DNA of 64,000 nt from Octopus sinensis (Eukaryota). Under the pieces are notes generated by a model that saw only the letters and a list, made by a program, of their open reading frames with translations, was not told the origin of the DNA and did no database searches. Position 1 is the first letter of the stretch; every line of letters starts with the position of its first letter. The translations under genes and the position numbers were made by a program. Shown here piece after piece: positions 8,139 through 52,723 of this stretch. The stretch is taken from the NCBI RefSeq assembly GCF_006345805.1, contig NC_043013.1:29450001-29514000 (forward strand), given 5' to 3'.

Positions 8139-8142
<4 letters not shown>

Positions 8143-8675
8143 TATTGGTGAATTGAAGAAATGGAGCTGAACGCAGATTGAACAGAAATCGTTTTATTTC
8201 ATTCTACACGTGTTTCGAAAGGCACAAATTACCAAAATCCGATTGAATAATGGGACCATATTGTGTCTTTCTCTTCAGGAAGAAAAAAGGAAATCCGTTG
8301 GAAAAACAAAAACAGAACAGAGGCGGAGCAAAAAACAAATCGAACTGTGCTCCTAAGAGCCCATGGCGAAACTCCTTTTTTCTTCCTGAAGAGAAAGACA
8401 CAATATGGTCCCATTATTCAATCGGATTTTGGTAATTTGTGCCTTTCGAAACACGTGTAGAATGAAATAAAACGATTTCTGTTCAATCTGCGTTCAGCTC
8501 CATTTCTTCAATTCACCAATAATGTTTTAATTTCAATTATCCGCACCAACGCACGGTTGCAACGCCAGATGGTTGTACCTCCAACCGTGCTGTTTACTGC
8601 TGTGATTTTTGCTACTAAGGTATCGGTTAAACTGTTGATTAATCTACTACAAGATTATTCATCTTTCTATTTCAC

Positions 8676-8680
<5 letters not shown>
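8139..8680. mobile_element. (TA)n-inserted element with 153-bp inverted repeat, each arm carrying an HHR
   Basis: 8139-8291 reads as the reverse complement of 8373-8525 with an 81-bp spacer; (TA)n on both sides. Confidence 0.85.
8381..8466 (+). ncRNA. Minimal type I hammerhead ribozyme motif (mirror copy on minus strand ~8198-8283)
   Basis: TTC-CTGAAGA(8386-8392)-GAAAG...CTTTC-GAAAC-ACGT-GTA-GAA; stem II GAAAG/CTTTC, palindromic ACGT loop III, GUA cleavage triplet, short stem I. Confidence 0.7.
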
Positions 8681-8718
<38 letters not shown>

Positions 8719-11440: not shown

Positions 11441-12086
11441 TGATTCATATATATACGTACATACATACATACATACATACATACATACATACATACATAC
11501 ATACACATACATACATACATACATACATACATACATACATACATACATACATACATACATAGGCAACGCCAATCGTAAATAATTTTATTTTATTTACAAA
11601 AGATTGCAGAAACTATGCATAGTCCAGAAAGGAGAGGGCAAACGTTTTTATTTCTCTTTCCATTTCAGAATTACAACTATTAGTGGTTTGGAGTTTAACT
11701 GCTCTTTCTAGTGAGACAGATGTCCTATTATAGCCATCTCTTATATGTTTGTTTGTATATATATATATTTGTGTGTGTGTGTGTAATTCGTCTCTGCACA
11801 TCATTTCTTGAGCTGGAAGTACTTTCTTATTATAACGTGCAGCTGTCTAAAATGTCAATGTTGAACTGAAGCATATTCGATGGTCTCAAAGCAAGGGAAG
11901 CGAGAGTGTTAAACATTTGCCACATTCGTATTCGATCCTTCAAATATTGTTTCAGAACAGCATCACTTGAGGCATGCACTATGAATTCCTAATATGCATA
12001 TTAAAATTATTGTATTACTATTTGCTACAAAACAATTGTGTTTATCCATCCATGTATGTATGTATGTATGTATGTATGTATGTATG

Positions 12087-12117
<31 letters not shown>

Positions 12118-12148
12118 GTATGTATGTAAGTATGTATCAGTCTGTCTG

Positions 12149-12203
<55 letters not shown>

Positions 12204-12416
12204 CCCCTATTCTCTCTCTCACACACACAGACACACAAATGCACACAAACATTTTAGAGAAGTAAGCATATTTGATGAATCTAAACTTATTTGGCATCTC
12301 TGAAAATATTCAATACGTATTATATGTATGTATATATATAAATATATATATATATACACACACCACATATATATATATATATATTATATATATATATATT
12401 TATATATATAAGTATA

Positions 12417-12448
<32 letters not shown>

Positions 12449-12562
12449 CATATATGTATATATATTTTTATATATGTATATGTATTTATATGTATGTATA
12501 TATGTATATATATTATATATATAATATATATATATATATAATATATATATATATAAATATAT

Positions 12563-15290
12563 TAGTTGCGGATTCTAGCTCGCTCTGATACTGAGTTGAG
12601 TTGATGCCTTCTAGTATCTCAAAATTCAATATATAATCATTTATGATTATAGTATTCTACGCTGAAGAGAAAAGAAGTTTTGGTAAGGTAGAATTATTTA
12701 ATATTAATTCTTATGCTTTCCTAAAAACTTGATTTCGAAACGTGCGTCCGTAGATAACTTAAAATTGTATGATAGATTGCCGTCAATTCATTCTCTCTTA
12801 CCTGTTTGTGTCTGCCTTCCAATTGCTGTTTTTACTGAGATCTCCCTTTTTAGTAGAAGAAATAGCTATAACTCTTTGACTGCTATTTCTAAATTCGGTA
12901 TGTGGTAAGGCAATTCGTTGCTAGACCCTTTATTGCTTAGTATTACTTAAATTTTCCTCGAATGAGGCTTTTACATGCCGAAGACTACTTGTTGTAATTG
13001 ATAATTATTCCAATTAATTAATTTCACCCTTCATTATTACGGATAACCATATTTTATCTCAGTAGATGACCACAGCATCTTGTTTTGGCTACACGCGGGT
13101 GGGAGGGGCTGGTGACACAATCTTTTCATTCACACTTTCAATTTGGGGATACTAGTTGCGGATTCTAGCTCGCTCTGATACTGAGTTGAGTTGGTGCCTT
13201 CTAGTATCTCAAAATTCAATATATAATCATTTATGATTATAGTATTCTACGCTGAAGAGAAAAGAAGTTTTGGTAAGTAGAATATTTAATATTTAATTCT
13301 TTGCTTTCCTAAAAACTTGATTTCGAAACGGGCGTCCGTAGATAACTTAAAATGTATGATAGATTGCCGTCAATTCATTCTCTCTTACCTGTTTGTGTCT
13401 GCCTTCCAATTGCTGTTTTTACTGAGATCTCCTTTTTAGTAGAAGAAATAGCTATAACTCTTTGACTGCTATTTCTAAATTCGGTATGTGGTAAGGCAAT
13501 TCGTTGCTAGACCCTTTATTGCTTAGTATTACTTAAATTTTCCTCGAATGAGGCTTTTACATGCCGAAGACTACTTGGTGTAATTGATAATTATTCCAAA
13601 TTAATTAATTTCACCCTTCATTATTACGGATAACCATATTTTATCTCAGTAGATGACCACAGCATCTTGTTTTGGCTACACGCGGGTGGGAAGGGGCTGG
13701 TGACACAATCTTTTCATTCACACTTTCAATTTGGGGATACTAGTTGCGGATTCTAGCTCGCTCTGATACTGAGTTGAGTTGGTGCCTTCTAGTATCTCAA
13801 AATTCAATATATAATCATTATGATTATAGTATTCTACGCTGAAGAGAAAAGAAGTTTTGGTAAGTAGAATATTTAATATTTAATTCTTATGCTTTCCTAA
13901 AAACTTGATTTCGAAACGGGCGTCCGTAGATAACTTAAAATTGTATGATAGATTGCCGTCAATTCATTCTCTTACCTGTTTGTGTCTGCCTTCCAATTGC
14001 TGTTTTTACTGAGATCTCCTTTTTAGTAGAAGAAATAGCTATAACTCTTTGACTGCTATTTCTAAATTCGGTATGTGGTAAGGCAATTCGTTGTTAAACC
14101 CTTTATTGCTTAGTATTACTTAAATTTTCCTCGAATGAGGCTTTTACATGCCGAAGACTACTGGTGTAATTGATAATTATTCCAAATTAATTAATTTCAC
14201 CCTTCATTATTACGGATAACCATATTTTATCTCAGTAGATGACCACAGCATCTTGTTTTGGCTACACGCGGGTGGAAGGGGCTGGTGACACAATCTTTTC
14301 ATTCACACTTTCAATTTGGGGATACTAGTTGCGGATTCTAGCTCGCTCTGATACTGAGTTGAGTTGGTGCCTTCTAGTATCTCAAAATTCAATATATAAT
14401 CATTTATGATTATAGTATTCTACGCTGAAGAGAAAAGAAGTTTTGGTAAGGTAGAATTATTTAATATTTAATTCTTATGTTTCCTAAAAACTTGATTTCG
14501 AAACGTGCGTCCGTAGATAACTTAAAATTGTATGATAGATTGCCGTCAATTCATTCTCTCTTACCTGTTTGTGTCTGCCTTCCAATTGCTGTTTTTACTG
14601 AGATCTCCTTTTTAGTAGAAGAAATAGCTATAACTTTGACTGCTATTTCTAAATTCGGTATGTGGTAAGCAATTCGTTGCTAGACCCTTTATTGCTTAGT
14701 ATACTTAAATTTTCCTCGAATGAGGCTTTTACATGCCGAAGACTACTTGGTGTAATTGATAATTATTCCAATTAATTAATTTCACCCTTCATTATTACGG
14801 ATAACCATATTTTATCTCAGTAGATGACCACAGCATCTGTTTTGGCTACACGCGGGTGGGAAGGGGCTGGTGACACAATCTTTTCATTCACACTTTCAAT
14901 TTGGGGATACTAGTTGCGGATTCTAGCTCGCTCTGATACTGAGTTGAGTTGGTGCCTTCTAGTATCTCAAAATTCAATATATAATCATTTATGATTATAG
15001 TATTCTACGCTGAAGAGAAAAGAAGTTTTGGTAAGGTAGAATTATTTAATATTTAATTCTTATGCTTTCCTAAAAACTTGATTTCGAAACGGGCGTCCGT
15101 AGATAACTTAAAATTGTATGATAGATTGCCGTCAATTCATTCTCTCTTACCTGTTTGTGTCTGCCTTCCAATTGCTGTTTTTACTGAGATCTCCCTTTTT
15201 AGTAGAAGAAATAGCTATAACTCTTTGACTGCTATTTCTAAATTCGGTATGTGGTAAGGCAATTCGTTGCTAAACCCTTTATTGCTTAGT
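12563..15290 (+). repeat. Head-to-tail array of a ~588-bp non-coding unit (4.6 copies), one HHR per unit; retrozyme-like
   Basis: Unit starts (TAGTTGCGGATTCTAG) at 12563, 13153, 13741, 14326, 14911; near-identical copies; both ends run into (TA)n. Confidence 0.95.
12656..12754 (+). ncRNA. Minimal type I hammerhead ribozyme (first of five in the array)
   Basis: Stem I TCTACG/CGTAGA, core CTGAAGA (12662-12668), long stem II GAAA.GAAGTTTT...AAAACTT..TTTC, GAAAC-GTGC-GTC (cleavage after 12748). Confidence 0.85.
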
Positions 15291-15300
15291 ATATATATAT

Positions 15301-15356
<56 letters not shown>

Positions 15357-16124: not shown

Positions 16125-16728
16125 GTATGTATGTTTTTATGTATGTATGTATGTATATATGTATGTATGTATGTATGTATGTGTGTATGTGAGTGTGCTG
16201 AAAGGTTCCTGACTGTGGGCAAACACACTGTCTTTTACTACCCGCCATTGCTTCTTCACCAAACTTTTTGGCGCCCTCCGATTCTTCCCCTCTCTTCCTC
16301 CCATCCTCCTCCCCTCTTCCTCCCATCCTCCTTAATCCCTTCTTTCTCCTTTTCTCTTGGTCACTGATTCTGTCCCCTGCCTTCCACCCTCTTTGATTCC
16401 CTCTCTCTCTGTCTCTCTTTCTCTCTCTCCTGCGACCTGCTGCTTCTTAAACCATTCTGTTGGCCTTCGTATCTCGACCAACATGTGTCCCCGCTACCGA
16501 AACGGTAATTATTTCTACGCCAGCTATGTTGTTGTTGTTGTTTTTGTCTCATTTGGTCTAAAGTCGTATGACAACCACCGTTATATATATTTTGTTTATT
16601 CATTACTGTTTTCAATTTCGTTTTCGTCTCTTGTATTCACATCCGTCTTGTGCGTTCACATTCCTGTCTTCTACCAAGAAATCTAATGCTTACAGCTTAG
16701 TTTTTTTTCTTGGGGCTGGCCGAGTTGG

Positions 16729-16797
16729 AGCAAATATCAGAATTGAACAGCCGAAATTTGCTATGATGATTCGGTGTCTGACTGAAGATTGAAGGCT
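16729..16797 (+). ncRNA. Candidate non-circularly permuted (pseudoknotted) hammerhead ribozyme; repeated at ~19193-19261 and ~19922-19990
   Basis: AGCAAAT-A-TCAGA ... CAGCC-GAA-ATTTGCT ... TCTGA-CTGAAGA: stem III (7 bp) and stem I (5 bp) flank the core nucleotides in register, but the strand order is non-standard and the stem II partner is ambiguous. Confidence 0.5.
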
Positions 16798-17217
16798 TCG
16801 AATGATTTGTCTGTGTTCCGTGTTCGTCCCTTCCTGTATATCACGTTCATTATATATAAAAACATTCATTCTTATATTATTGCGGCGTTACGTGCACCCC
16901 CCCCCCCCGTTTGTTTGTCCAATTTTAAACCCTGCACGACTTCTATACACACTGTCTTTTACTACCCGCCATTGCTTCTTCACCAAACTTTTTGGCGCCC
17001 TCCGACTCTTCCCCTCTCTTCCTCCCATCCTCCTCCCCTCTTCCTCCCATCCTCCTTAATCCCTTCTTTCTCCTTTTCTCTTGGTCACTGATTCTGTCCC
17101 CTGCCTTCCACCCTCTTTGATTCCTCTCTCTCTGTCTCTCTTTCTCTCTCTCCTGCGACCTGCTGCTTCTTAAACCATTCTGTTGGCCTTCGTATCTCGA
17201 CCAACATGTGTCCCCGC

Positions 17218-18944
17218 GGATCAGTTGTCTGTTCGTCAGTTTGAGTTCGGTCGTGTTTTTTTACGCTCGTAAAATTCGGTAAAAAAGATCAAAAAGAATT
17301 GTTGTGTTGTTGTGGAAATTTTGAACGGCGTTTTAAAGCGGTTTCGCGTTCCACTGGTTCTGCGCGTTACACTTTTTCTGTTTTGACGGCCGTTTTGGCC
17401 TGTCAGGCGGGAGGAGATGGATGACCACTCCCTAGTGGAGGAGTCGGAGGAAGAATGGATATTTGAGAGCTTGTCGGAGACATCGAACTCTGAAGACGAG
17501 CAAATCGGTGATGTAAATAATGTGGAGAAAAATTACAGGAAAACGTACGCAGGAGTTGCAAAAAAGAAGACGGAACAGGAAAAAGAAATAAACCTAGAAA
17601 AATTGCCAGGTTTCCAGAGGTATATGAGGAAGGACAGCGGCGAGGTGGAACTGGAACCACCACCAAAGAGAAAGGAATGGTACAATAAGAGGACCATAAT
17701 TTACAGGGTGTTCGTGAACGAAAGAAAGAAAATAGAGATCGTAAACATGGAATGGATAGAGGAGGCCCTGAGAAGATCGGAGGAGGAAATCATTTTCCTG
17801 ACTCGAGGATCGAAGTACGGTACTGTAGTGGTGCATTTTAAAAGTGAGACTGCAGCGAGGAGGATGGCGGTGAAGGCGGTGAAGTCAGAGAAAGGGTAAC
17901 ACTTTTACCTATGTACTTGAATAGAAGGATCACACGAGTAAGGGTGGAGGGAGTGCCACCAAACGTGGAGGCTGAGTGGATTGTGGCGGCTGTGATCAGC
18001 GGCCACGAGGAGAAAGTAGATATTCTCCATGCCTCGGTCAAGACCGAGGGCTGAGAGAGGCGTAATAGTGGAGCTGAACGTGGCAGGCGGACAGCGAGGT
18101 ACTGGTGGACCTGGCGGAGAGCATTAAATTGGGAGACGTGATTATGAGAGTGTGGGTGGAGGGCAGAGCTCCACGTTGTTACAAGTGTGGCCTGAGGGGC
18201 CACATAAGAGCCTTCTGCCCTCCCCCACCAAGAGAAAAGGAAATCGTTGAGGAAATCTCCAAAAGAGGAGGCCCCAAAAGAAGAAGAAATTAAAGAGAAG
18301 CAGACGGAAAGGGAAATGACAGAGGAGGAGGAGATGCAAAAAGAGTGTGAGGAGGGCAGAAAGAAGAGAAAAGGAAAGAAAAGGAAAAATGTGCGGCGAA
18401 GCCCCAACCCACCCCATACCACCCCACACCCTTGGAGACCCATCCTGCCCCCGCAAAACAGCAATCCCACCCACTCCCCGCCTACAAAAAACGAAAACAG
18501 ACACACAGAACATACAAAAGCCCCAGTCCTACTTTTTATGTGTTGTGGGGAAGGGGGATACTGAGAACGCAAGAAGGCTTTTTGAAGACGATGTATGGCA
18601 GGAGTATGAGGACGGAAGCTATGCGGTATTCGATTTTGAACTCATGGGCTCTTTGATGAGCAAGTGCAATGAACTACGTATAAATTGTTTATCAGCATTT
18701 ATGAAGGATGATATGATAGAGAGATATGAGAGAAATGAAAGGTAGGTGAGGTGAAAAACTTTGGAATCGTGATAGGAAACGGAAAGGTAAGTGATGCTGG
18801 CGGAGGGGGCCGTTAGCATCGCTTTCATGTTATCATTTTTTCATTTTAACATTCATTTAATCATAATTTTAATCGCATTGTTTTATGTCCCCCATGTTTT
18901 GTAATGTTCCCTCTTCGTGGCCCCTAGTGGGTAATAAAGAAATA
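17218..18944 (+). mobile_element. ORF1-only non-LTR retroelement (Tx1/L1-like) with 19-bp TSD
   Basis: GACCAACATGTGTCCCCGC at 17199-17217 and 18945-18963; ends AATAAAGAAATA; single gag-like ORF and no RT. Confidence 0.85.
17417..18745 (+). pseudogene. Frameshifted ORF1/gag-like protein with CCHC zinc knuckle
   Basis: Consecutive ORF pieces: acidic N-terminus, RRM-like YGTVVVHFKSE and RVRVEGVPP, CYKCGLRGHIRAFC (CX2CX4HX4C), Glu/Lys-rich linker, C-terminal domain ending 18745. Confidence 0.75.
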
Positions 18945-20762
18945 GACCAACATGTGTCCCCGCTACCGAAACGGTAATTATTTCTACGCCAGCTATGTTG
19001 TTGTTGTTGTTTTTGTCTCATTTGGTCTAAGTCGCATGACAACCACCGTTATATATATTTTGTTTATCATTACTGTTTTCAATTTCGTTTTCGTCTCTTG
19101 TATTCACATCCGTCTTGTGCGTTCACATTCCTGTCTTCTACCAAGAAATCTAATGCTTACAGCTTAGTTTTTTTCTTGGCTGGCCGAGTTGGAGAAAATA
19201 TCAGAATTGAACAGCCGAAATTTGCTATGATGATTCGGTGTCTGACTGAAGATTGAAGGCTTCGAATGATTTGTCTGTGTTCCGTGTCTCGTCCCTTCCT
19301 GTATTTCACGTTCATTATATATAAAAACATTCATTCTTTATTATTGCGGCGTTACGTGCACCCCCCCCCCCCCCGTTTGTTTGTCCAATTTTAAACCCTG
19401 CACGACTTCTATACACACTGTCTTTTACTACCCGCCATTGCTTCTTCATCACCAAACTTTTTGGCCGGCGCCTCCGACTCTTCCCCTCTCTTCCTCCCAT
19501 CCTCCTCCCCTCTTCCTCCCATCCTCCTTAATCCCTTCTTTCTCCTTTTCTCTTGGTCACTGATTCTGTCCCCTGCCTTCCACCCTCTTGATTCCCTCTC
19601 TCTCTGTCTCTCTTTCTCTCTCTCCTGCGACCTGCTGCTTCTTAAACCATTCTGTTGGCCTTCGTATCTCGACCAACATGTGTCCCCGCTACCGAAACGG
19701 TAATTATTTCTACGCCAGCTATGTTGTTGTTGTTGTTTTTGTCTCATTTGGTCTAAAGTCGTATGACAACCACCGTTATATATTTTGTTTATTCATTACT
19801 GTTTTCAATTTCGTTTTCGTCTCTTGTATTCACATCCGTCTTGTGCGTTCACATTCCTGTCTTCTACCAAGAAATCTAATGCTTACAGCTTAGTTTTTTT
19901 TCTTGGGGCTGGCCGAGTTGGAGCAAATATCAGAATTGAACAGCCGAAATTTGCTATGATGATTCGGTGTCTGACTGAAGATTGAAGGCTTCGAATGATT
20001 TGTCTGTGTTCCGTGTTCGTCCCTTCCTGTATTTCACGTTCATTATATATAAAAACATTCATTCTTATATATATATATATCCCAATAAGGTTCGAAAATC
20101 GATTATGTTCATTTTTTCAGCCTGCGGAGAAATGGCTAGAATTTGCCATGTTTATAATTATACCATATGTTACATGTGTATATATATATGTGTGTGTGTG
20201 TGTGTGTATGTGTGTGTGTGTATGTGTGTGTGTATGTATGTATATATGTATATATATATATATGTGTCCATACATATACCATGCATTCGTATATACATGC
20301 ATATATACATACATCCCTTCTGGGGTGCAAAGGAATAAATATAAGATTGGAGCACTCAATATACTTGGTTTGAGTTACATGAAAATTTTAACGATCTGGC
20401 TCAGCTCAACGTTGCGTTAAGATTCGTAAGACCGTACCGCACATACACGAAACTTGAAGTAATGCAGCGTGAGTGAAAGAATTATAATCCTTCCCGCTCT
20501 CTGTCTCTGTATAACTATATAAGTAGTAACTATTGAAAATGTTTTTATTTTTCATCCCCTTCGAAATTACTCTTAACTGTGGTTTCGACTTTGACTGTTC
20601 GTTTTAGCATGTAAGGTATCCTGTTAGGGTTATCACTTTTGTGTATAAATATACACTTATTTTATATGAAAAATATGTTATCTATTGACTATTTTATGCA
20701 TGCTAGCCACTGGTAGAACATTTCTCTAATTTCTCTACCCTATATATATATATATATTATCG

Positions 20763-20796
<34 letters not shown>

Positions 20797-21134
20797 TCAG
20801 TAAAACTTTAGATTCAGTTGAATATGGTACTTAAGTTAAAGGAACCAGAATTTAGTATGGTGTTATCCATATAATTCAAAATTGGGTGATTATAATCAAA
20901 ACAAGCAACAAGGATATCCAGAGGTAATGCAGTACAATCGTTTCATGCGACTCCATTTAGCCAAAGACACCGATAGAATAAGTACTAGGGTCACGAACAA
21001 TAAGTCCTGGGGTAGATTTGTTCGACTAAAGGCAATGCTCCAGCAAGGTTCAGTCAAATGACTGAAACAAATAAAAAAAATGAGTAAAAGAATATATTAT
21101 TTATATATATATATATTATATTATATATATATAT

Positions 21135-21208
<74 letters not shown>

Positions 21209-21595
21209 ATATATATTTATTGAACGACTAGTTACAAATATCCTTTATTCTCGACATATGTTTCGAAGGCTGCATATTCCTAATTCTGAAGGAATAAGGA
21301 GTACATTATGCAGATTTCTCATCAGGAAAATCAAGCAACTTATGGCGACACCAAAATGCACAAAAAACTTTTAGTCAGCTATATACTTATAATTTTAAAA
21401 TAAATATACAAATTTCCGCACGAAGACACGTAGTCTATGCCCTAGGGACGTAGCTTCAACCGCGTTCTTTCTGATGTGAATTTGCTACCCAGGTATCGGT
21501 TATCTTTCGAATTATCCTTAATAAGATAATTCATTCAATTACTCAAATATATATATATATATAATCAAAATAAGCAACAATGATATCCAGAGGTA

Positions 21596-21685
21596 ATGCA
21601 GCATGATCGTTTCATGCGACTCCATCTAAATGAACAATGCAAGTATTACATCAATTTTAAAATGTAGAGCAATCTTCAGCTGCAT
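21596..21685 (-). ncRNA. Degenerate type I hammerhead motif
   Basis: ATGCAG-CTGAAGA-TTGC...GCAT-GAAAC-GATC-ATG-CTGCAT; partial sister copies read GATC-ATA (~21811,+) and GATT-GTA (~20930,-), implying a GATC-GTA consensus. Confidence 0.6.
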
Positions 21686-22086
21686 AAAAATATAGAATTT
21701 CGTTAAATTCGAAGGACTCATTTCTAATAAGAAAACTATACAAATGAATCCTTCGAATTTTAAAATTGATGTAATACTTGCATTATTCAATTAAATGGAG
21801 TCGCATGAAACGATCATACTGCATTACCTCTGGATATCATTGTTGCTTATTTTGATTATATATATATATATTTGAGTAATTGAATGAATTATCTTATTAA
21901 GGATAATTCGAAAGATAACCGATACCTGGGTAGCAAATTCACATCAGAAAGAACGCGGTTGAAGCTACGTCCCTAGGGCATAGACTACGTGTCTTCGTGC
22001 GGAAATTTGTATATTTATTTTAAAATTATAAGTATATAGCTGACTAAAAGTTTTTTGTGCATTTTGATGTCGACATAAGTTGCTTG

Positions 22087-22171
22087 ATTTTCCTGATGAG
22101 AAATCTGCATAATGTACTCCTTATTCCTTCAGAATTAGGAATATGCAGCCTTCGAAACATATGTCGAGAAT
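22087..22171 (+). ncRNA. Canonical minimal type I hammerhead ribozyme (mirror copy 21247-21331, minus)
   Basis: Stem I ATTTTC/GAGAAT, CTGATGA (22093-22099), stem II GAA..CTGCATA/TATGCAG..TTC, GAAAC-ATAT-GTC with palindromic loop III. Confidence 0.85.
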
Positions 22172-22198
22172 AAAGGATATTTGTTAACTAGTCGTTCA

Positions 22199-22277
<79 letters not shown>

Positions 22278-22558
22278 TAATATATATATTCTTTTACTCA
22301 TTTTTCTTTTATTTGTTTCAGTCATTTGACTGGAGCCTTGCTGGAGCATTGCCTTTAGTCGAACAAATCTACCCCAGGACTTATTGTTCGTGACTCTAGT
22401 ACTTATTCTATCGGTATATTTGGCTAAATCACTAAGTTACGGACATAAACACACCAAAATCGGTTGTCAAGCGACGGTGGGAAACAAACACAGACACGAA
22501 AATACATATATGCATACATATATATGTGGTGTGTGTATATAATATATTAATATATGTA

Positions 22559-23234
22559 TAGAAGAAATAGCTATAACTCTTTGACTGCTATTTCTAAATT
22601 CGGTATGTGGTGAGGCAATTCGTTGCTAAACCCTTTATTGCTTAGTATTACTTAAATTTTCCTCGAATGAGGCTTTTACATGCCGAAGACTACTTGGTGT
22701 AATTGATAATTATTCCAAATTAATTTAATTCACCCTTCATTATTACGGATAACCATATTTTATCTCAGTAGATGACCACAGCATCTTGTTTTGGCTACAC
22801 GCGCGTGGGAAGGGGCTGGTGACACAATCTTTCCATTCGCACATTGAATTCGGTGAACTAGTTGCGGATTCTAGCTCGCTCTGATACTGAGTTGAGTTGG
22901 TGCTATCTAGTATCTCAAAATTCAATATATAATCATTTATGATTATAGTATTCTACGCTGAAGAGAAAAGAAGTTTTTGGTAAGATAGAATTATTTAATA
23001 TTAATTCTTATGCTTTCCTAAAAACTTGATTTCGAAACGTACGTCGTAGATAACTTAAAATTGTATGATAGATTGCCGTCAATTCATTCTCTCTTACCTG
23101 TTGTGTCTGCCTTCAATTGCTGTTTTTACTGAGATCTCCCTTTTTAGTAGAAGAAATAGCTATAACTCTTGACTGCTATTTCTAAATTCGGTATGTGGTG
23201 AGGCAATTCGTTGCTAAACCCTTTATTGCTTTGT
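22559..23234 (+). mobile_element. Dispersed, circularly permuted ~1.15-unit copy of the 588-bp HHR repeat
   Basis: Same sequence as the 12563-15290 unit but starting at TAGAAGAAATAGC; ~85-bp terminal redundancy; HHR loop III reads GTAC; TA-rich flanks. Confidence 0.9.
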
Positions 23235-23333
23235 ATATATAGATATATATATATATATAAACAATGAATTAAATAGTGAGATTCAATTAACAATCTAGTA
23301 CTTTAGTTATATTATAACATAATATACTATATA

Positions 23334-23467
23334 TACATTATTTACATTATTTACATTTGATAGATATTTGTCCTCATCTTGTTTGTTCCCGTGGGCATAT
23401 GGCTTAGTGGTTCAGAGCGCGGGCTACTAACCCCAAGATTCCAAATTTAATTCCGAGCAGTGACCTG

Positions 23468-23498
<31 letters not shown>

Positions 23499-23516
23499 AC
23501 AACAACAACAACAACA

Positions 23517-23547
<31 letters not shown>

Positions 23548-23763
23548 AGGAGAAGGAGAAGGAGAAGGAGAATGATAACAAGGAAAAATAGCTGAGGGAT
23601 CAGAACCCAGGTTCGAAATTTCCTCAAGACATCTAATGATGGCTGGAGGGTATATCAGCCAAAATGTTGTGTTAACAATAAAGAGGATGAGGACAAATAT
23701 CCGGCAAATGTAAATAATGTAAGTAATATACATACTTCCTCATCTCTTAAATATAGAACTGTA
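23334..23763 (+). mobile_element. tRNA-headed SINE with decayed HHR-like 3' module and inverted partial copy of its 3' end upstream
   Basis: A-box TGGCTTAGTGG at ~23400; triplet-repeat spacer; ACAT-CTAATGAT-GGCTG...CAGCC-AAAAT-GTT-GTGT at ~23629-23672; 23334-23387 is inverted relative to ~23674-23727. Confidence 0.6.
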
Positions 23764-24264
23764 TTGAAATATACTATATATATAATATAAGATACCATAG
23801 AAATATTATTAAAAAACCAAAATAGACAACAATTGGCTTCGACTTGTATACATTATTTGATTTATAAACAATTCATATCCACTTATATAAGTCTCTTCAG
23901 AGCTTTGGTTTAAAAAGCCGATGAAATTCCGTGTGAAAGGACGGTTGGATTCCCAAAAATTAATTCAAATTTATTGTTTGTAATATTCATTATACTATTT
24001 AAGTGGTATTCAACTGACGTACTAGTGAATTGGATGTTTTACACACTCCTTTGAAGGAATTCCTTTCCTTAGTTTGTTACTTATATATATATATATATAT
24101 ATAATATATATATACACGTCCGTCTTCTTTCAGTTTCCGCCTACCAAATCCACCCACCAAGCGTTGGTCGCACCGAGGCTATAGTAGAACTTGCCCATGG
24201 AGCCACGCAGTGGGACTTAACACGGATCCATGTGGTTGGGAAGCAAGCTTCCTACCCCACAGCC

Positions 24265-27685: not shown

Positions 27686-27904
27686 ACGCGCATAGTGATA
27701 CATTAAAATATTTATAAATTCCATCCATGGGTTATTATTATTATTATTATTATTATGTTTACTCTACGTTATATCGACACAACATGATGGGATCCCATAA
27801 AACTGCTGATGTAGGTTGGAATCACTAGGCCGTAGGCGACATAGTAAAATAGCAGCTTCATATGCGTACTCAAAAGCGTTTCCTGCAAACTAACTTAAGG
27901 ATGG

Positions 27905-27906
<2 letters not shown>
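27686..27906. repeat. Unclassified ~220-bp dispersed repeat abutting (TA)n; second copy 49655-49874
   Basis: Near-identical copies 22 kb apart with the same start (ACG(C/T)GCATAGTGATAC) and the same end (AAGGATGG then (TA)n). Confidence 0.9.
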
Positions 27907-27976
<70 letters not shown>

Positions 27977-27979
<3 letters not shown>

Positions 27980-30900
27980 ATATTTCGGAATGGTCATATT
28001 GCCAGTTTAGCCAATAAAACACACGCACTATATATTTGGTGTTATTTTGCTTCAGTGATATTTATTTTTTACATTAATCTTAATCTTATTTCGGCCAAAG
28101 TTCTTTCGTCACACTCCTGTGACCGCATCAGTGGTCCTTTGTTTTCTTCTCACTTACTTGTGGCTCTCCTTACTAACCGTCAGCTATTTTGTATTTCTAT
28201 TGTATGTCTTCATTTGTGCATGCTTATATCTCTATGTGCGTCTATGTTTATTTAGTGTGTGTGTGGGGGGGATGCCTGTAATATTTGTATCTTCTGTTAT
28301 ATACATTCTTGTAATTTGTGTTTTTTTTTTGTTGTTGTTGCTTTTGTTCTAATTTTGTTCATGTGTTTACATCCACCCATTATATCATTACATATGCTTG
28401 TATGTATGTATACAAACAATTTAGTAATAATAATAATAAATCTAATCGAAAAAAAAAAAAAAGAATATACATATACATATATATATACATACATATACAT
28501 ATACATATATATATATATACATATATACACACATATATACACATATACATGTACATATATATACACATATACATATATATAGATATTCATTTCTATTTCT
28601 TTAATTACCTGTGTATTTATTATGTTTGCAGGATCCACTATTGTCATATGTTGTGGTGTGCGCTATTGCTCCATTCTAGTTTTCTATTCAGGCTAGGTTT
28701 ATTTTCTATTATATGTGTAGCTTCTGTAATTTGTCTAATTGTTGCATCTGTTCTATGTGTGGACAATATCTTAATCTCTATGTTATTGATTGATCCCCCG
28801 TGTTCTTGTTCAGCGTGTTGGTACAGAATCGATGAGCTTTTACCTTCCTTGAGTTGTCTCCAATGTTCATTCACCCGCTCACCAATGCTTCTTGCAGTTT
28901 CCCCTACGTATGTTACTGTCTTGTTACTGCATCGTCCCTCTATACATCTTATACTATAGACCACATTTCTGGCTTTACAGTTCGTTTGTGGGAAATCTAC
29001 ATACAGTGCAATAGTTATCCGTACAGAGTTCTACTAAAAGGATAGCTTCTACCAATTATAGATCTGATAGGGTTGCCTGGCTTTTCAACAACCTTAATTC
29101 TTAGTTTAAGTTTATCTAGGGTCCTTCTAAAGCGGTACGCTAGTTCACCTCCAGGGGTGGTGTCAACGAACATGACACTCTGGTATTTATGGCTATCATA
29201 CCAAGAGTTGGCCTTCCCTATTTTCTTTTTTGTCCTTTCTATAGTGTTCCATGACTTGTTCCTATAGAGTGGGCAAATCCCATTCCTATCATTACATAAT
29301 ATATTATCAAATTTCTTCATGGCTCCTTTGTATACTCTGATCCTTTCTTTATGGCTGTAACCTGAGAACTGCATGCGGTGAATGAAATACTGTATGTGTC
29401 TCTTTAATTCTGTAGGCTCGCACATGCGTGACACATTTCTCATTATTCTGACGAGGTCTGCCATCAAAATATTGAATTTGGCATTGCCCGCAATGGCTGA
29501 GTTCCGGTGGATCAGGTATTTTGAGGCCATAGGTTTTGCATAGTATGAATGAAGGATTTGGGTTTTATTTTTCACAATTTCTAGCCAGAGTTCAGTGTCT
29601 AGTACTGGTAGTCTATGGTTGGGGGTTTAAGTGGGGTAGTCTATTGTGACCTTAATACTCTGGTGGATGGAGTTAGCTATTTGCTGGATGCTCTCCATAG
29701 TATTAGTTTCTATTACTATATCAACAGTACTCTCTTGTGGGGGTGCCTTTACTACTATATTGATATCATCAACATAGCGAGAGTACATGTTTACGAGTAT
29801 GGATTTCTGCAGTAGGCATTCTTTAAGCCTTCTGTCCCACCATACCATGAAGAGGTTGGCCACATCACCAGCGATACTAACACCGATGGCTGCCCCCTCG
29901 TCCTGGGCATATATTTTATTATTAAATTTAAATGTGTGGCCTTTTAGGGTAACTCTTATACTAGCTCCTAGTGCATGTGCGATCATTTTCTTTACCTGAT
30001 GGACATTTGCGGGGCTCCGTATGGCTCTGGTCCATCCGCGCCATCTTTCTATATGTGTCTTCCTAGCCATAGAAGTAATTGTAGGCGGTCTACCTCTTAA
30101 ACATCTACTGGGGCAGAAACTACTAAGATTATGTTTATCTAAGTATTCACTATTATATGTCAGTCTAAGTAGGAGGCCCAGTTCTTCTGTGTCGACATTA
30201 CAGAACTCCACCTGGCTCTCGTTGATCATCTCCACGCACTTCTCCACTGCAAAATCTACGTCAATCGATGGGTATAGGGATACCACATCCATGCTACCTA
30301 CTATACATCCTGTCAAGTCACAAGTTTTGTTACAGTCACTGATCCTGCTTAGGAGATCTTCTGTGCTGTCACACACATCAGGTGACATCCTGATTATAGG
30401 GCATATGATCATTGAGAGGAAGTAGGAGATTCTGTAATTGCTAGCGATATTCGCTCCACAGACTGGTCTTGTTGGTGGTCCTGCTATAGGGTCAGTAAAA
30501 CCTTTATGGTCCTTGCGAAGTCCATACAGTGCCGGGATATCATTGTTCCAGGCTTAGAAATTCTTTGCAGTACGTTTCTGAGGTCCCAGAACAATTGTCC
30601 ACATCATCATGTGGGCATTGAGGACCTTTTCTCTCTCCTCATGCGCCTGTACAGTTGTTACTTTTGTATTGGCGATATGAGGTTGCATTGCCTGGATGTA
30701 GTTCGGTAAGCTGTCTATTGACATCCTGCCGGACTTATCCGTGGGAAGGCATATCACCTCTCCGTTCCTCGTGCGCTGAATGAGCTTCTGTAGGCCACAT
30801 GCAGGTTTAATCCCTGTTGTTGGGCATCTGTCTTATTCTGTCTCTGTCTCTTAATGTATAATCCTAAAATCTGTCTAAGTTTGGTCCTAGCTATAGTGAA

Positions 30901-32215
30901 CTGTGCTTCCATGTGGTCATTAGTACGTCTTGGGATGTATACTCTTTTGTTGAAGGGTAATGTTGTTGGATAAATTCGGTTCATGCAGTAAGTTTTGTCG
31001 CATACGTTGAAGAATTGAGTGTCAAAGGGATGGGTATACATGTCAATAGTCTCTCTAGGGTTATCTTCATTATCGTTATTGTTTCCAACATCAGCCTTCC
31101 TATTATTATTATCACCATTACCACTACTACTACTACTAGTATTCCTATTACCACCACAACTATCACTACTATCCTCATTACTACTTCTACTGTTACCATC
31201 ACCACTACTACTACCACTATTATTGTTATTACCTTTATTCCTACCATTGCCATTATTACTATCATCGCTAGTGATATATTCATTGTTCCTGTTTCTGGTA
31301 TATGTGTTGTTTATATTAGTGTTGGGTTTTATGTCTGTCTGTTGGTCCCTGTCAATCCCCCTGTTGCGGTCGTTATTTTTGTTCCTATGAGTATTGTTAT
31401 CTGTTTCAAGTCCGCTGACTCCCTGTCCAAGGATCCTGTTGCATTCAACTTTATTCTCCATCGTGACCCCTATGACACAACTTTTATTCGTGTCTTTGTG
31501 ACTATGGCTATCTGTGTGGTGTTTTGTGTGTCGGTTCTCCCTATAATTGTTGTTGTTGTTGCTGTTGTATACGATTTTTCTCTCTCTGTTTGTTTTTTTG
31601 TTTTTGTATCTATTGTTTGTGTCTATGCATACATTTTTTCTATTGTTATTGTTGTTGTCGCTGTTAGGGTTCGTGTTGTTGTTGTTGTTGCCGCTGTTAG
31701 GGTTCGTGTTGCTTTTGTTGCTACGGTTGTTATTGTTGCGGTCATTATTGTTGTGTTGTTGTTGCTGCGGTTAGTGTTTTTTCGCGTTGTTGTTGTTGTC
31801 GCAAGTGTTGTTGTCATAGTATCTATTTAAATTCCAACGTATTTTTGTGAACGACTTTTCAATCTCGGACAGGCATTTGATGGTATTCACTTTACTATAC
31901 ACTGCATACTTTGGTGGTAGTTGAAGTATCGATATTTCATCTGGGTCCGTTGTTACTCCCCCATAGATGTTCGCTTCATTGTCTTTATTGAACTCTTCTG
32001 GTAGTAGCACATCTTCCATAATAATTCCATTTATTGTATCTGGATACTTCTGCTTTTCTTCCTTTGCGAGCTCATATTGACGTTTCTGTTTCAACCACGA
32101 TAACTTCCTCTTAAAATGGATATTGCATTGGTGTATTACATGTCTGTTTTCTTCATATATTATATCCATTATTAAGGTTTTCTCCTTTCGTGTGGTGATA
32201 CTTTTAATTTCTTTT
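27977..32215 (-). mobile_element. Penelope-like retroelement (RT + C-terminal GIY-YIG endonuclease; Naiad-like), 5'-truncated and frameshifted
   Basis: PTDKSG, GSMDVVSLYPSI, GAAIG...ANLFM, YSRYVDDI, CPLYR..W, SVMFVDTTPGGEL, Cys-rich linker (CTDNYCTVC), VYSIRC...[16 protein letters not shown]...E...LN. The 3' boundary at (TA)n is inferred; coding pieces span 28644-32215. Confidence 0.85.
28093..28137 (-). ncRNA. Variant hammerhead-like motif downstream of the Penelope-like ORF
   Basis: GGACCA-CTGATGC-G-GTCACA(GGAG)TGTGAC-GAAAG-AA-CTT-TGGCC; good stem II, imperfect stem I, core A9 replaced by C. Confidence 0.5.
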
Positions 32216-32446
32216 AAAATGTTCAGAACGGCATTGTTTTCGTCAGAAAAGTAGATATAATTTTTTATCAAAGTGGTTATATATTCTATAATTTTCACAG
32301 ACAATCAATACAATATTAATTGTTATTGTCTGCGATTTTGGTGTAATTTGAGAGGATAATACAAAAGTTATGGATGATTTAGTGATTTACTGCAAAACCC
32401 ATGGCGGCCAACATGATCAGAACGGTTGAAAAAATAACAAAATAAT

Positions 32447-33919: not shown

Positions 33920-35254
33920 ATGACAGAGAATACTGGAATTATTTAATATTTAGTGTGAAGCCCTTTAGCTTCAATTTCTTGCTGGTTGATCTTATTCCAT
34001 TCTTCCTGAAGGGCATTCCATAATTGCTCAGTTGTTTTAGGATTTCTGGCTTTCGAACGTTCTCCTAGAATATTCCACACATTTTCAATAGGATTGAGAT
34101 CTGGGCTTTGAGCTGGCCAATCCATAACAATAACCTTTTCAGCCTTGAGGAAGTTCATGACCACCTTAGCCTTGTAACATGGGGCATTGTCCTGCATGAA
34201 TTTGGGTGGTCGCTTAGTTGAATTTCTCAGCACAGGCAAGACATGATCTTTTACAAGTTGTTTATAAACTCCTGGATTTACCTTTACATGTAATCGCACC
34301 AAAGGACCCACACCATCTCCAGATATCATTCCCCAAACCATGACACTTCCTCCACCGAATTTAACACTAGTCTTAAGGCATTTAAGTAACAATTTTTCAC
34401 CTACCTTTCTACGAACGTACCTTTTCCCATCTAAGCCAAATAGCATAAACTTAGATTCATCACTGAAGTGCACCGTTTGCCATTTTTCTTGAGATTAGAA
34501 CACATGTTCGGTTGCAAAGTTAAGACGACACTTTTTATTCATGGAGCTGATCAGTGGCTTCACTGCAGGTGCTCTTGCTTGTAGGTCATGTTCAACTAAA
34601 CGACGAGACACAGTTTTTCGAGATAAAGTTTTCTTCAATACAATGCTCATTTTCCGAGAAACAGCAGCAGCAGTTTTAAATCTGTCCTTTTTAACCAACT
34701 TTACCATAGCACGATCTTCTCTCTTGGTCGTTTTTCTTGGCCTACCTGAAAACTTTCTTGCTTCACACGAACCACAATCTTCGTAGACCTTAAGAATACC
34801 GTGTACAACACTTTTTGACTTGTTAACAATCTTTGCAATAGATCCAATACTTAAATTATCCTCCCTTCGAAGCTTAATAATCTGCTGACGAATTGGTAAC
34901 GGAGTAAGTGGCATTATATTAACAAAGTACACTGCAAATATTCTTACTAATGTTTAGTAAACGAACCGTCACGTAAACAAATTCAAAACATTAGAGTTCG
35001 CCGGTTAAATATACTAAAACACGGAGTAAAAGCAACCGTTCTGATCCTTTTGGCCGCCATGGGTTTTGCAGTAAATCACTAAATCATGCATAACTTTTGT
35101 ATTATCCTCTCAAATTACACCAAACTCTCAGGCAATAACAAATAATATTGTATTCATTGTCTGTGAAAATTATAGAATATAAAACAACTTTGATAAAAAA
35201 TTATATCTACTTTTCTGACGAAAACAATGCCGTTCTGAACATTTTGGCCGAAAC

Positions 35255-35305
<51 letters not shown>

Positions 35306-49654: not shown

Positions 49655-49874
49655 ACGTGCATAGTGATACATTAAAATATTTATAAATTCCATCCATGGG
49701 TTATTATTATTATTATTATTATTATGTTTACTCTACGTTATATCGACACAACATGATGAGATCCCATAAAACTGCTGATGTAGGTTGGAATCACTAGGCC
49801 GTAGGCGACATAGTAAAATAGCAGCTTCATATGCGTACTCAAAGCGTTTCCTGCAAACTAACTTAAAGGATGGT
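49655..49874. repeat. Second copy of the ~220-bp (TA)n-abutting repeat
   Basis: Near-identical to 27686-27906. Confidence 0.9.
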
Positions 49875-49932
49875 TATATATTATATATTATAATATATAT
49901 ATATATTATATATATATATATATATTATATAT

Positions 49933-49966
<34 letters not shown>

Positions 49967-50258: not shown

Positions 50259-50319
<61 letters not shown>

Positions 50320-51913
50320 CAGTTGCGGCAAAATGTTCAGAACGGCATTGTTTCGTTAGAAAAGTAAGTATAAGTTTTTATCAAAGTTATTTTTTATTCT
50401 ATATTTTCACAAACAATAAATACAATGTTAGTTGTTATTGTCTGATATTTTGGTGTAATTTGAGAGGATAATACAAAATTTATGGATGATTTAGTGATTT
50501 ACTGCAAAATCCATGGCGGCCAAAATGATCAGTACGGTTGAAAAAATAACAAAATAATCAAAAATGACAGAGAATACTGGAATTATTTAATATTTAGTGT
50601 GAAGCCCTTTAGCTTCAACCACACTCTGACATCTTCGACTGCATGAGGAAATTAAATTTTCAATTTCTTGCTGGTTGATCGTATTCCATTCTTCCTGAAG
50701 GGCATTCCATAATTGCTCAGTTGTTTTAGGATTTCTGGCTTTCGAACGTTCTCCTAGAATATTCCACACATTTTCAATAGGATTGAGATTTGGGCTTTGA
50801 GCAGGCCAATCCATAACAATAACCTTTTCAGCCTTGAGGAAGTTCATGACCACCTTAGCCTTGTGACATGGGGCATTGTCCTGCATGAATATGGGTGGTC
50901 GCTTAGTTGAATTTCTCAGCACAGGCAAGACATGATCTTTTACAAGTTGTTTATAAACTCCTGCATTTACCTTTCCATGTAATCGCATCAAAGGACCCAC
51001 ACCATCTCAAGATATCATCCCCCAAACCATGACACTTCCTCCACCGAATTTAACACTAGTCTTAAGGCATTTAGGCGAGAATTTTTCACCTACTTTTCTA
51101 CGAACGTACCTATTCCCATCTGAGCCAAATAACATAAACTTAGATTCATCACTGAAATGCACCGTTTGCCATTTTTCTTGAGACCACAACACATGTTCGG
51201 TTGCAAAGGTAAGACGACACTTTTTATTCTTGGAGCTGATAAGTGGCTTCACTGCAGGTGCTCTTGCTTGTAGGTCATGTTCAACTAAACGACGAGATAA
51301 AGTTTTCTTCAATACAATGCTCATTTTCCGAGAAACAGCACAGCAGTTTTAAATCTGTCCTTTTTAACCAACTTTACCATAGCACGATCTTCTCTCTTGG
51401 TCGTTTTTCTTGGCCTACCTGTAAACTCTCTTGCTTCACACGAGCCACAATCATCGTAGACCTTAAGAATACCGTATACAACACTTTTTGACTTGTTAAC
51501 AATCTTTGCAATAGATCCAATACTTAAATTATCCTTCCTTCGAAGCTTAATAATCTGCTGACGAATTGGTAACGGAGTAAGTGGCATTATATTAACAAAG
51601 TACACTGCAAATATTCTTACTAATGTTTAGTAAACGAACCGTCACGTAAACAAATTCAAAAGATTAGAGTTCGCCGGTTAAATATACTAAAACACGGAGT
51701 AAAAGCAACCGTTCTGATCATTTTGGTCGCCATGGGTTTTGCATCCATAACTTTTGTATTATCCTCTCAAATTACACCAAACTCTCAGGCAATAACAAAT
51801 AATATTGTATTCATTGTCTGTGAAAATTATAGAATATAAAACAACTTTGATAATAAATTATATCTACTTTTCTGACGAAAACAATACCGTTCTGAACATT
51901 TTGGCCGCCACTG
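50320..51913 (-). mobile_element. Tc1 transposon copy 2, full length with TA target sites
   Basis: TA|CAGTTGCGGCAAAATGTTCAGAACGG ... CCGTTCTGAACATTTTGGCCGCCACTG|TA; ~210-bp TIRs with inner repeat GGCGGCCAAAATGATCAG; transposase 50587-51605 broken by frameshift and stop. Confidence 0.95.
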
Positions 51914-52723
51914 TATGTAAGCAGGCATATAGGCGAAGAATATCATCCAGAATGCATCCGACCTAAAATTAAGCACAGTGGTGGAAGTGTGATGGTGTGG
52001 GGTTGAATGTCTGGTAATGGCGTCGGTCCTATAATCCGATTCAAGGGCATTATGCATAGTAAGTCCTATCTAGAAATATTGGATAAGACTATGCTTTCAT
52101 ACGCCCGAAAACATTTGGGCCGGTCTTGGACTTTCCAGCATGACAACGACAAGAAACACACCTCGCACCTAGTCAGAGATTACATTAGGTCTAAGAGAGT
52201 TCGGTTGATGCAGTGGCCGGCGCAGTAGCCTGACCTAAATCCTATCGAGAATCTTTGGGAGAGGTTGGGTAGGGCTGTACAAAGTAGTAAGCCAAAGAAT
52301 AAGGGTAATTTTTAAACGTTATTAGCCAAAGCTAGGAGAAAATCTCAGGAACAGTGATAAATGATCTGAACAATTCTATGTTTCGCAGATGCAAAGCTGT
52401 ATTAAGTAATTTTGGATACTAATTGTGTGAGTTTATTAGTATTATTTTTTTTTTTATCTTAGAATAAACTTTTTAAAGCAGAAAAATGAAATTTTACAAA
52501 TCGTTCTTAAATTAAATGGCGCTATAAATTACGATAATTAAATTTATTTTTAATCTAAAATTAACGTATTGATATTACGCTGTAAAGTTGTACACCATAT
52601 TAAAGCTCGTGAAAGTTTCTTTATTTTGACATAAATCTTAATTCACAATTTACAACTTGAATATATAAAAAGTGCCATTTTATCAAAAGTATACTAGCAT
52701 TCTTAAATTAAACGGTGCCACTG
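51914..52723 (+). mobile_element. 3' half of a different Tc1 family
   Basis: KHSGGSVMVWG, FQHDNDKKHTS, WPAQ.PDLNPIENLW; terminus ...GTGCCACTG|TA at 52723. Confidence 0.8.

Follow-up and report, generated by a model that had tools for sequence, protein, structure and literature searches.

How can a repeat enter a genome so that one end of each insertion lies at the same internal position of the repeat unit, while the other end varies and the insertions cover one unit in one place and several in another? This question is raised by a segment at position 22559 of a 64,000-nt stretch of Octopus sinensis DNA (contig NC_043013.1, positions 29,450,001 to 29,514,000; hereafter the window, with coordinates counted from its first letter). 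We consider it probable that the underlying 588-bp unit is a non-LTR retrozyme, copied into (TA)n tracts by a Penelope-like reverse transcriptase (RT) and GIY-YIG endonuclease acting in trans.

Two insertions share a 3′ end and differ in length

In a self-comparison of the window, the segment at 22559 was 95% identical to the units of a head-to-tail array (12563-15292, plus strand), with no other match in the window. The array is 2,730 nt long (4.65 units) and carries five intact type I hammerhead motifs; the solo insertion (22559-23236, plus strand) is 678 nt long (1.15 units), and unit length across the copies is 585-590 nt. Both insertions end in CCCTTTATTGCTT(A/T)GTAT followed by (TA)n, with an end motif that reads TTGCTT(A/T)GTAT, whereas the same unit position inside the array reads on from GTAT into TACTT and not into (TA)n. 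The last unambiguous element base is G15289 in the array and G23233 in the solo copy; the TAT that follows (15290-15292 and 23234-23236, respectively) is compatible with both element and flank, and the solo copy ends at 23236 if the TAT is counted to the element and at 23233 if it is not. The 5′ starts are out of phase, at 12563 in the array (TAGTTGCGG) and at 22559 in the solo copy (TAGAAGAAA), and both are preceded by a TA-rich microsatellite with an overlap of 0-2 nt. The shared 3′ end follows the predicted hammerhead cut by 195 nt in the array and by 191 nt in the solo copy. The preliminary description of this locus had claimed a common stop before (TA)n at one unit position, about 200 nt downstream of the cut site, with different starting points and spans of 1.15 versus 4.6 units, and these measurements bear it out on each count.

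Because it exceeds one unit, the solo copy is terminally redundant: its first 90 nt (22559-22648) are 97.8% identical to its last part (23148-23236), which ends in GTAT before (TA)n. The last base of 22559-22648 is the shared end position, at which the sequence here carries on into the remainder of the unit. The microsatellites flanking the array lie at 12321-12562 and 15290-15352 (the first three bases of the latter overlap the TAT of the unit), and the (TA)n-rich 3′ flank of the solo copy at 23237-23260. With such flanks, a target-site duplication is undefinable at either insertion, and only ATATAT was recovered. The solo copy begins just 3′ of the pyrimidine-rich TTTTTAG of the unit. Splice-like sites, possibly due to chance, occur in the unit at 22559, 22610, 22769 and 22979, and an A/G polymorphism at 22612 preserves a GTRAG donor-like motif; no splice-like joints are listed among the public contigs matched to 22559-23147.

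The shared 3′ end is genuine, but it is based on two of two copies. The probability that two independent ends coincide by chance is 0.005 if ends are distributed uniformly and a distance of up to 1 nt is allowed, 0.017 if they are confined to the 58 TA sites of the unit, and 0.05 if they are confined to its 20 TAT sites (n = 2 copies in each case). With two copies and a chance of up to 5% under the last assumption, one may ask whether any RNA step is needed: the repeat could be a satellite spread by DNA circles or recombination, with ends that coincide by chance, through (TA)n nucleated at TAT, or through long-read assembly. We regard such an origin as very unlikely, and the pattern of one fixed and one variable end argues against it, as do several observations reported below.

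The unit carries a hammerhead motif, folds strongly and is non-coding

A descriptor scan found a type I hammerhead in five of five array units, with a CTGAAGA core, a 6-bp helix I, GAAA, a short helix III and GTC; helix II has a 4-bp base and a long extension, and the predicted cuts fall after 12748, 13336, 13924, 14511 and 15097. The corresponding motif of the solo copy (22952-23050, plus strand; CTGAAGA at 22958, a long helix II, GAAA at 23034, a palindromic helix III and a cut near 23044) is missing one of the two C residues at the cut site, and unlike the five array units it does not pass the motif scan. Since this extra C is present not only in the five array units but also in contigs of all four public sets that we compared, its absence from the solo copy is either a private mutation or a homopolymer error. 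The helix III loop reads GUAC in the solo copy but GUGC or GGGC in all five array units, which have thus lost the perfect GTAC palindrome; a palindromic GTAC loop is described as a trait of metazoan hammerheads that act as dimers (PMC4209133). This loss could make cleavage as a dimer less efficient and thereby favour multimers that stay uncleaved.

Over the whole window, a relaxed hammerhead scan returned 10 hits, compared to none in each of 10 block shuffles; five of the hits lie in the array, two at 8140-8525, two at 21221-22198, and one, with an altered core, at the 3′ end of a Penelope-like element. The Rfam hammerhead model gave no hit over the window at the gathering threshold, and an Rfam search over 14300-15300 at E up to 10 returned two chance-level hits and no hammerhead; the long helix II is the likely cause of this miss. 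The squid genome paper does no more than count 235 Rfam hammerheads (PMC6962438).

The unit folds far better than its shuffles, both as a linear molecule (z = −5.7) and as a circle (z = −5.3, 67% paired, 0 of 40 shuffles as good). In the three array units that were folded, the active hammerhead fold lies 2.1-4.4 kcal/mol above the minimum. A conserved hammerhead together with strong folding on one strand is at odds with spread of the repeat without RNA. No stop-to-stop frame over 14326-15292 is longer than 67 aa, which leaves the unit without coding capacity; no open reading frame (ORF) adjoins the array or the solo locus, and G+C is 0.31 in the 2-kb bins 12001-14000 and 22001-24000. Several of the features by which non-LTR retrozymes are recognised are present: hammerheads in consecutive units (in the array, not in the solo copy alone), non-coding sequence, a fitting size, G+C below 50%, self-pairing, and a co-occurring Penelope-like element.

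The array and the solo copy descend separately from a variable family

Between the solo unit and the four full array units we counted 16-22 substitutions, compared to 2-9 among the array units themselves. We compared 22559-23147 with four public contig sets, which contained 4,630, 1,335, 1,440 and 36 matching contigs. At 22726, 22728, 22833, 22839, 22904 and 22905, about 99-100% of the contig depth has the letter of the array, and the six letters found at these positions in the solo copy are therefore private to it. The segment 22840-22858 (plus strand) differs between the solo copy and the array, and loose contig ends show additional forms of it; three letters that are common to the four full array units (at 22804, 22846 and 22854) are absent among the listed contig variants, in a stretch that is poorly covered. 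Given the private solo sites and the further forms of 22840-22858 in the contigs, the array and the solo copy are separate descendants of the family consensus, and 22840-22858 is a variable stretch of the family. It had been noted earlier that the solo insertion is not a local copy of the array, which agrees with these counts and with the private letters; 22840-22858 had at the same time been taken for a junction segment, and although it does differ from the array, it is not an insertion junction. The many substitutions between the solo copy and the array also imply that neither is a mis-assembled copy of the other, which weighs against an assembly origin of the shared end. Many of the differences between copies are homopolymer indels, which suggest weak polishing and count in favour of an assembly origin, and assembly error may affect the fine structure of the array.

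The 588-bp family was found in all four contig sets, and so was its head-to-tail joint (23144 to 22559). The number of variant contigs implies many genomic copies, bearing in mind that contig depth is not copy number. Both copies of the terminal redundancy in the solo insertion have a G where the five array units have an A; this G is a minority allele, with A in 74-80% of the depth in the three larger contig sets. Weak hints at the same end position come from one contig of set X2, which leaves the unit exactly after 22648 and continues for 8 unmatched letters, and from one contig of a variant subfamily in set X9, which enters (TACA)n within about 4 nt of the 22648 position. None of the 18 listed loose ends of the three larger sets (X1, X2 and X3) lies at 22648 with (TA)n; the loose ends listed number 24 out of 252 and the pieces listed 32 out of 7,551, and identical junctions collapse into few contigs. 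We discarded a higher contig depth at 22579-22738 in two sets, as contig depth cannot rank parts of the stretch, and did not take X9 contigs that start at 23052, near the cut, as evidence of cleavage, as their 30-nt overlap with the previous contig has the look of a graph branch. Exact 25-nt and 29-nt patterns of the unit matched 0 loci in metagenome contigs, and the exact 25-nt pattern matched none in viral and prokaryote genome contigs.

A decayed Penelope-like element and other repeats adjoining (TA)n

The window contains a decayed Penelope-like element of the Neptune/Nematis type (approximately 28003-32400, minus strand), interrupted by stops and frameshifts. Its RT and GIY-YIG frames, at approximately 28644-30553 on the minus strand, were recognised through weak Pfam hits below the curated cut-offs, and its linker region contains a CX4CxxC motif, which marks Neptune and Nematis Penelope-like elements (PMC8557442). 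Of the 83 hits of a protein search, many are Octopus vulgaris predictions, with as much as 99% identity across roughly one third of the query; such elements are thus multi-copy in Octopus. A long Asn-rich low-complexity stretch precedes the RT, and the altered hammerhead core lies near 28131. There is no tRNA gene in the window.

Two further hammerhead families are arranged as inverted repeats. The first is an inverted pair (8140-8677; 153 nt, 100% identity) with a different type I hammerhead and a palindromic helix III, located between two (TA)n runs; it has two ends 153 nt apart, which is reminiscent of a long Penelope-type tail, and one of these ends has a target overlap of only 1 nt. The second is a palindrome of about 1 kb (21221-22198) with (TA)n flanks, arms that are 97-99% complementary, and a third hammerhead family in each arm, 36-37 nt from the outer arm ends. 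Part of each arm is 70% similar to 8534-8693, and a fragment recurs at 20891-20959. In these two inverted families, (TA)n begins 36-37 and 65 nt past the cuts; Penelope-like insertions are described as showing inverted pairs, microsatellite targets and also a second end (PMC8557442). Each of the three hammerhead families in the window thus runs into (TA)n shortly 3′ of its motif, which again speaks against coincidence of ends without an RNA step.

A second non-coding tandem family (16223-20070) has a unit of about 724 bp, spans about 2.9 units and at its end passes into (AT)n with an overlap of TATAT; motif scans found no hammerhead in it. This array is broken at 17218-18944 by an interrupted ORF1-like piece with a zinc-knuckle-like motif and a 19-bp duplication. 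Two copies of a transposase element (33920-35262 and 50317-51919, about 91% identical), which by their motifs we take to be Tc1/mariner-like, have inverted ends of about 220 bp next to (TA)n. A 299-bp repeat is present in two copies (27686-27983 and 49655-49949, 95% identical) that end in (TA)n, the first of which has an 11-nt sequence repeated on both sides.

The array contains two linked unit types

When the array is divided into monomers from cut to cut, two linked types emerge, arranged Y X X Y X Y. Type X (M1, M2 and M4) has a G before the end motif and a G in loop 3, and type Y has an A and a T, respectively, in M3, with which M0 and M5 agree at their one readable site; M1 and M2 additionally share a deletion in helix II. 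This two-haplotype reading is based on three sites. In the phase of the array start, the array units showed an apparent four-gamete conflict that could be taken for recombination within units; the conflict vanished when monomers were phased from the helix III loop to the next variable site, and we read it as two haplotypes and not as proof of recombination inside units.

Both insertions run across the cut site, the solo copy once and the array five times, and the template must therefore have been continuous at this site, that is, a ligated circle or an uncleaved multimer. As the insertion ends are not at the cut site, copying probably begins internally and not at the 3′ end of the cleaved RNA. 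Which continuous template was used is a separate matter. One pass round a monomer circle would not be expected to give the order Y X X Y X Y, and since the array's units are two haplotypes, the 4.65 units of the array do not correspond to such a pass. The order fits a heteromeric template plus one later duplication, a later unequal crossover, or assembly mosaicism; the solo copy, which has one minority allele at both of its redundant ends, fits either a monomeric or a heteromeric template. The proposal in the preliminary description that a circular or multimeric RNA was copied by rolling reverse transcription is thus upheld as regards a continuous template, but not as an account of 4.6 units from a single monomer circle.

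An unlikely alternative retains the monomer circle: a monomeric circular RNA would anneal to nicked (TA)n through one TAT, the RT would roll round it a variable number of times, and the length of the array would be that of the run. This would account for the three-base TAT overlap at both insertion ends, for the alleles that the four full array units share and the solo copy lacks, and for the minority G shared by the two halves of the solo redundancy, as a single template unit would give; the nearby 724-bp family also ends with an overlap, the 5-nt TATAT. A monomer circle, however, predicts identical units, whereas the array has linked types, and M1 and M2 share an extra deletion. Nor can microhomology alone fix the position, given 20 TAT sites per unit, and one end of the family at 8139 overlaps its target by 1 nt. 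Starts of a Penelope-like RT in vitro are reported to be non-homologous to the target (PMC11167929), which also argues against priming at TAT. The TAT may belong wholly to the target, a (TA)n junction does not allow priming by microhomology to be recognised, and the earlier suggestion of a fixed TAT microhomology as primer is not supported.

The copies might instead be 5′-truncated pseudo-LTRs of an autonomous Penelope-like family, with the shared end being the usual RT start of that family and the array the product of later unequal crossover. Li et al. propose a pseudo-LTR origin for retrozymes (10.64898/2026.07.22.740005), the 90-nt direct repeats of a 1.15-unit copy could seed expansion, M1 and M2 resemble a local duplication, and one X9 contig has 255 unmatched letters before 22578. 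Even so, we find this origin improbable here. The solo copy already contains a whole closed unit that lacks an ORF, and its joint is present in four of four contig sets, which implies that the closed unit itself moves; no RT or GIY-YIG frame lies beside either locus, and neither end of the window's Penelope-like element is matched. In a direct comparison with both ends of that element, the 588-bp unit showed no DNA similarity, with scores in the shuffle range. Local alignments of the unit with the Penelope-like ends, the 724-bp unit and the 299-bp repeat were all within or near the shuffle range; in the alignments with the lowest shuffle counts, which involve AT-rich stretches, 2 and 3 of 100 shuffles reached the score.

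A possible course of insertion and its implications

In the retrozyme reading that we prefer, arrays would be transcribed on the plus strand into multimers that may cut themselves as dimers and then undergo ligation to circles. A Penelope-like endonuclease would nick a (TA)n tract, and the RT would begin not at the cut end of the RNA but at a favoured position within it, which protein binding or RNA folding would determine. From there it would run 5′-ward across the cut site and stop at a variable point, leaving 1.15 or several units. The array would have come from a template with two unit types, or would have been reshuffled later by unequal crossover. A more specific version, which we put forward tentatively and with considerable doubt, is that the retrozyme is abundant, that its copies, thousands in number, are phase-locked to a single internal start some 190 nt beyond the cut, and that arrays keep the unit order of heteromeric circles; an equally doubtful example would be a Y-X dimer circle traversed two and a half times.

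Published work on Penelope-like elements and retrozymes already covers both an internal start past the hammerhead and the copying of more than one unit from circles or multimers. Tandem insertion of more than one unit by retrozymes and Penelope-like elements is published as a proposal: for Penelope-like elements, reverse transcription of more than one unit from circles was proposed in 2014 (PMC4209133), and the synthesis of tandem cDNA from retrozyme circles by a Penelope-like RT has been proposed as well (PMC7229834). What is added here, to a class that is itself known, is an Octopus example of a probable non-LTR retrozyme with what may be a fixed internal end of the Penelope type in two of two local copies. 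The distance of about 190 nt between cut site and end makes for sharp predictions about copy ends. Cleaved linear monomers would leave a pile of 190-nt copies that start at the cut; circles would leave periodic identical units, and linear multimers would leave the heterogeneity of the parent array. With a variant-rich family in a public octopus assembly, the choice between circle and multimer is cheaply testable; without that test, the octopus unit is one more retrozyme family. If the idea of phase-locked copies is true, they would constitute a genome-scale fossil record of the use of ligated circles versus linear multimers by a Penelope-type RT.

Comparison with known systems

In literature on cephalopod Penelope-like elements and hammerheads, and in literature on insertion junctions, both covered mostly through papers outside subscription, we found no study of cephalopod retrozymes and no mapping of retrozyme insertion ends, respectively. 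The octopus unit resembles metazoan non-LTR retrozymes (PMC7229834; 10.64898/2026.07.22.740005) in its non-coding, AT-rich, head-to-tail units with a type I hammerhead in each, in its strong self-pairing, and in its co-occurrence with Penelope-like elements. At 588 bp, it is larger than the 150-450 bp given in 2020, but within the 51-972 bp of a 2026 preprint that links retrozymes to pseudo-LTRs (10.64898/2026.07.22.740005); its helix II is extended to about 70 nt. Circular RNA from non-LTR retrozymes is reported for coral, mussel and axolotl (PMC7229834). In a study of Xenopus, cleavage in vitro is reported for only one of nine predicted elements (10.64898/2026.07.22.740005).

Non-autonomous head-to-tail Penelope-like insertions are described in Chlamydomonas (PMC8557442, PMC9940879, 10.1101/2022.05.23.493040), and a bias towards (TA)n is described as well (PMC8557442). 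With Chlamys MRC1 and Naiad/Neptune (PMC8557442), the octopus insertions have in common microsatellite targets that hide the target-site duplication, 5′ truncation and head-to-tail copies. Unlike the octopus unit, Naiad and most Chlamys elements are described as lacking canonical hammerheads (PMC8557442), and unlike the elements in this comparison, the octopus unit has no 3′ match to an autonomous partner, as judged from the Penelope-like element in the window.

A parallel to the shared end is the Poseidon element PAc of Anolis carolinensis (PMC11167929), which likewise has an AT-rich target and an internal start 3′ of the hammerhead cut. For the purified PAc protein, internal RT starts about 85-92 nt past the cut match genomic ends, the starts are reported as not homologous to the AT-rich DNA that is cut, and hammerhead cleavage is not required, uncleaved RNA being the main substrate in vitro (PMC11167929). 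PAc is autonomous, starts in an AC-rich stem-loop and has a second ‘tail’ site (PMC11167929); no second end 30-40 nt further on is seen in the two copies of the 588-bp unit, which differs from PAc in being non-coding and in ending 191-195 nt past the cut, with a 3-nt overlap with the target.
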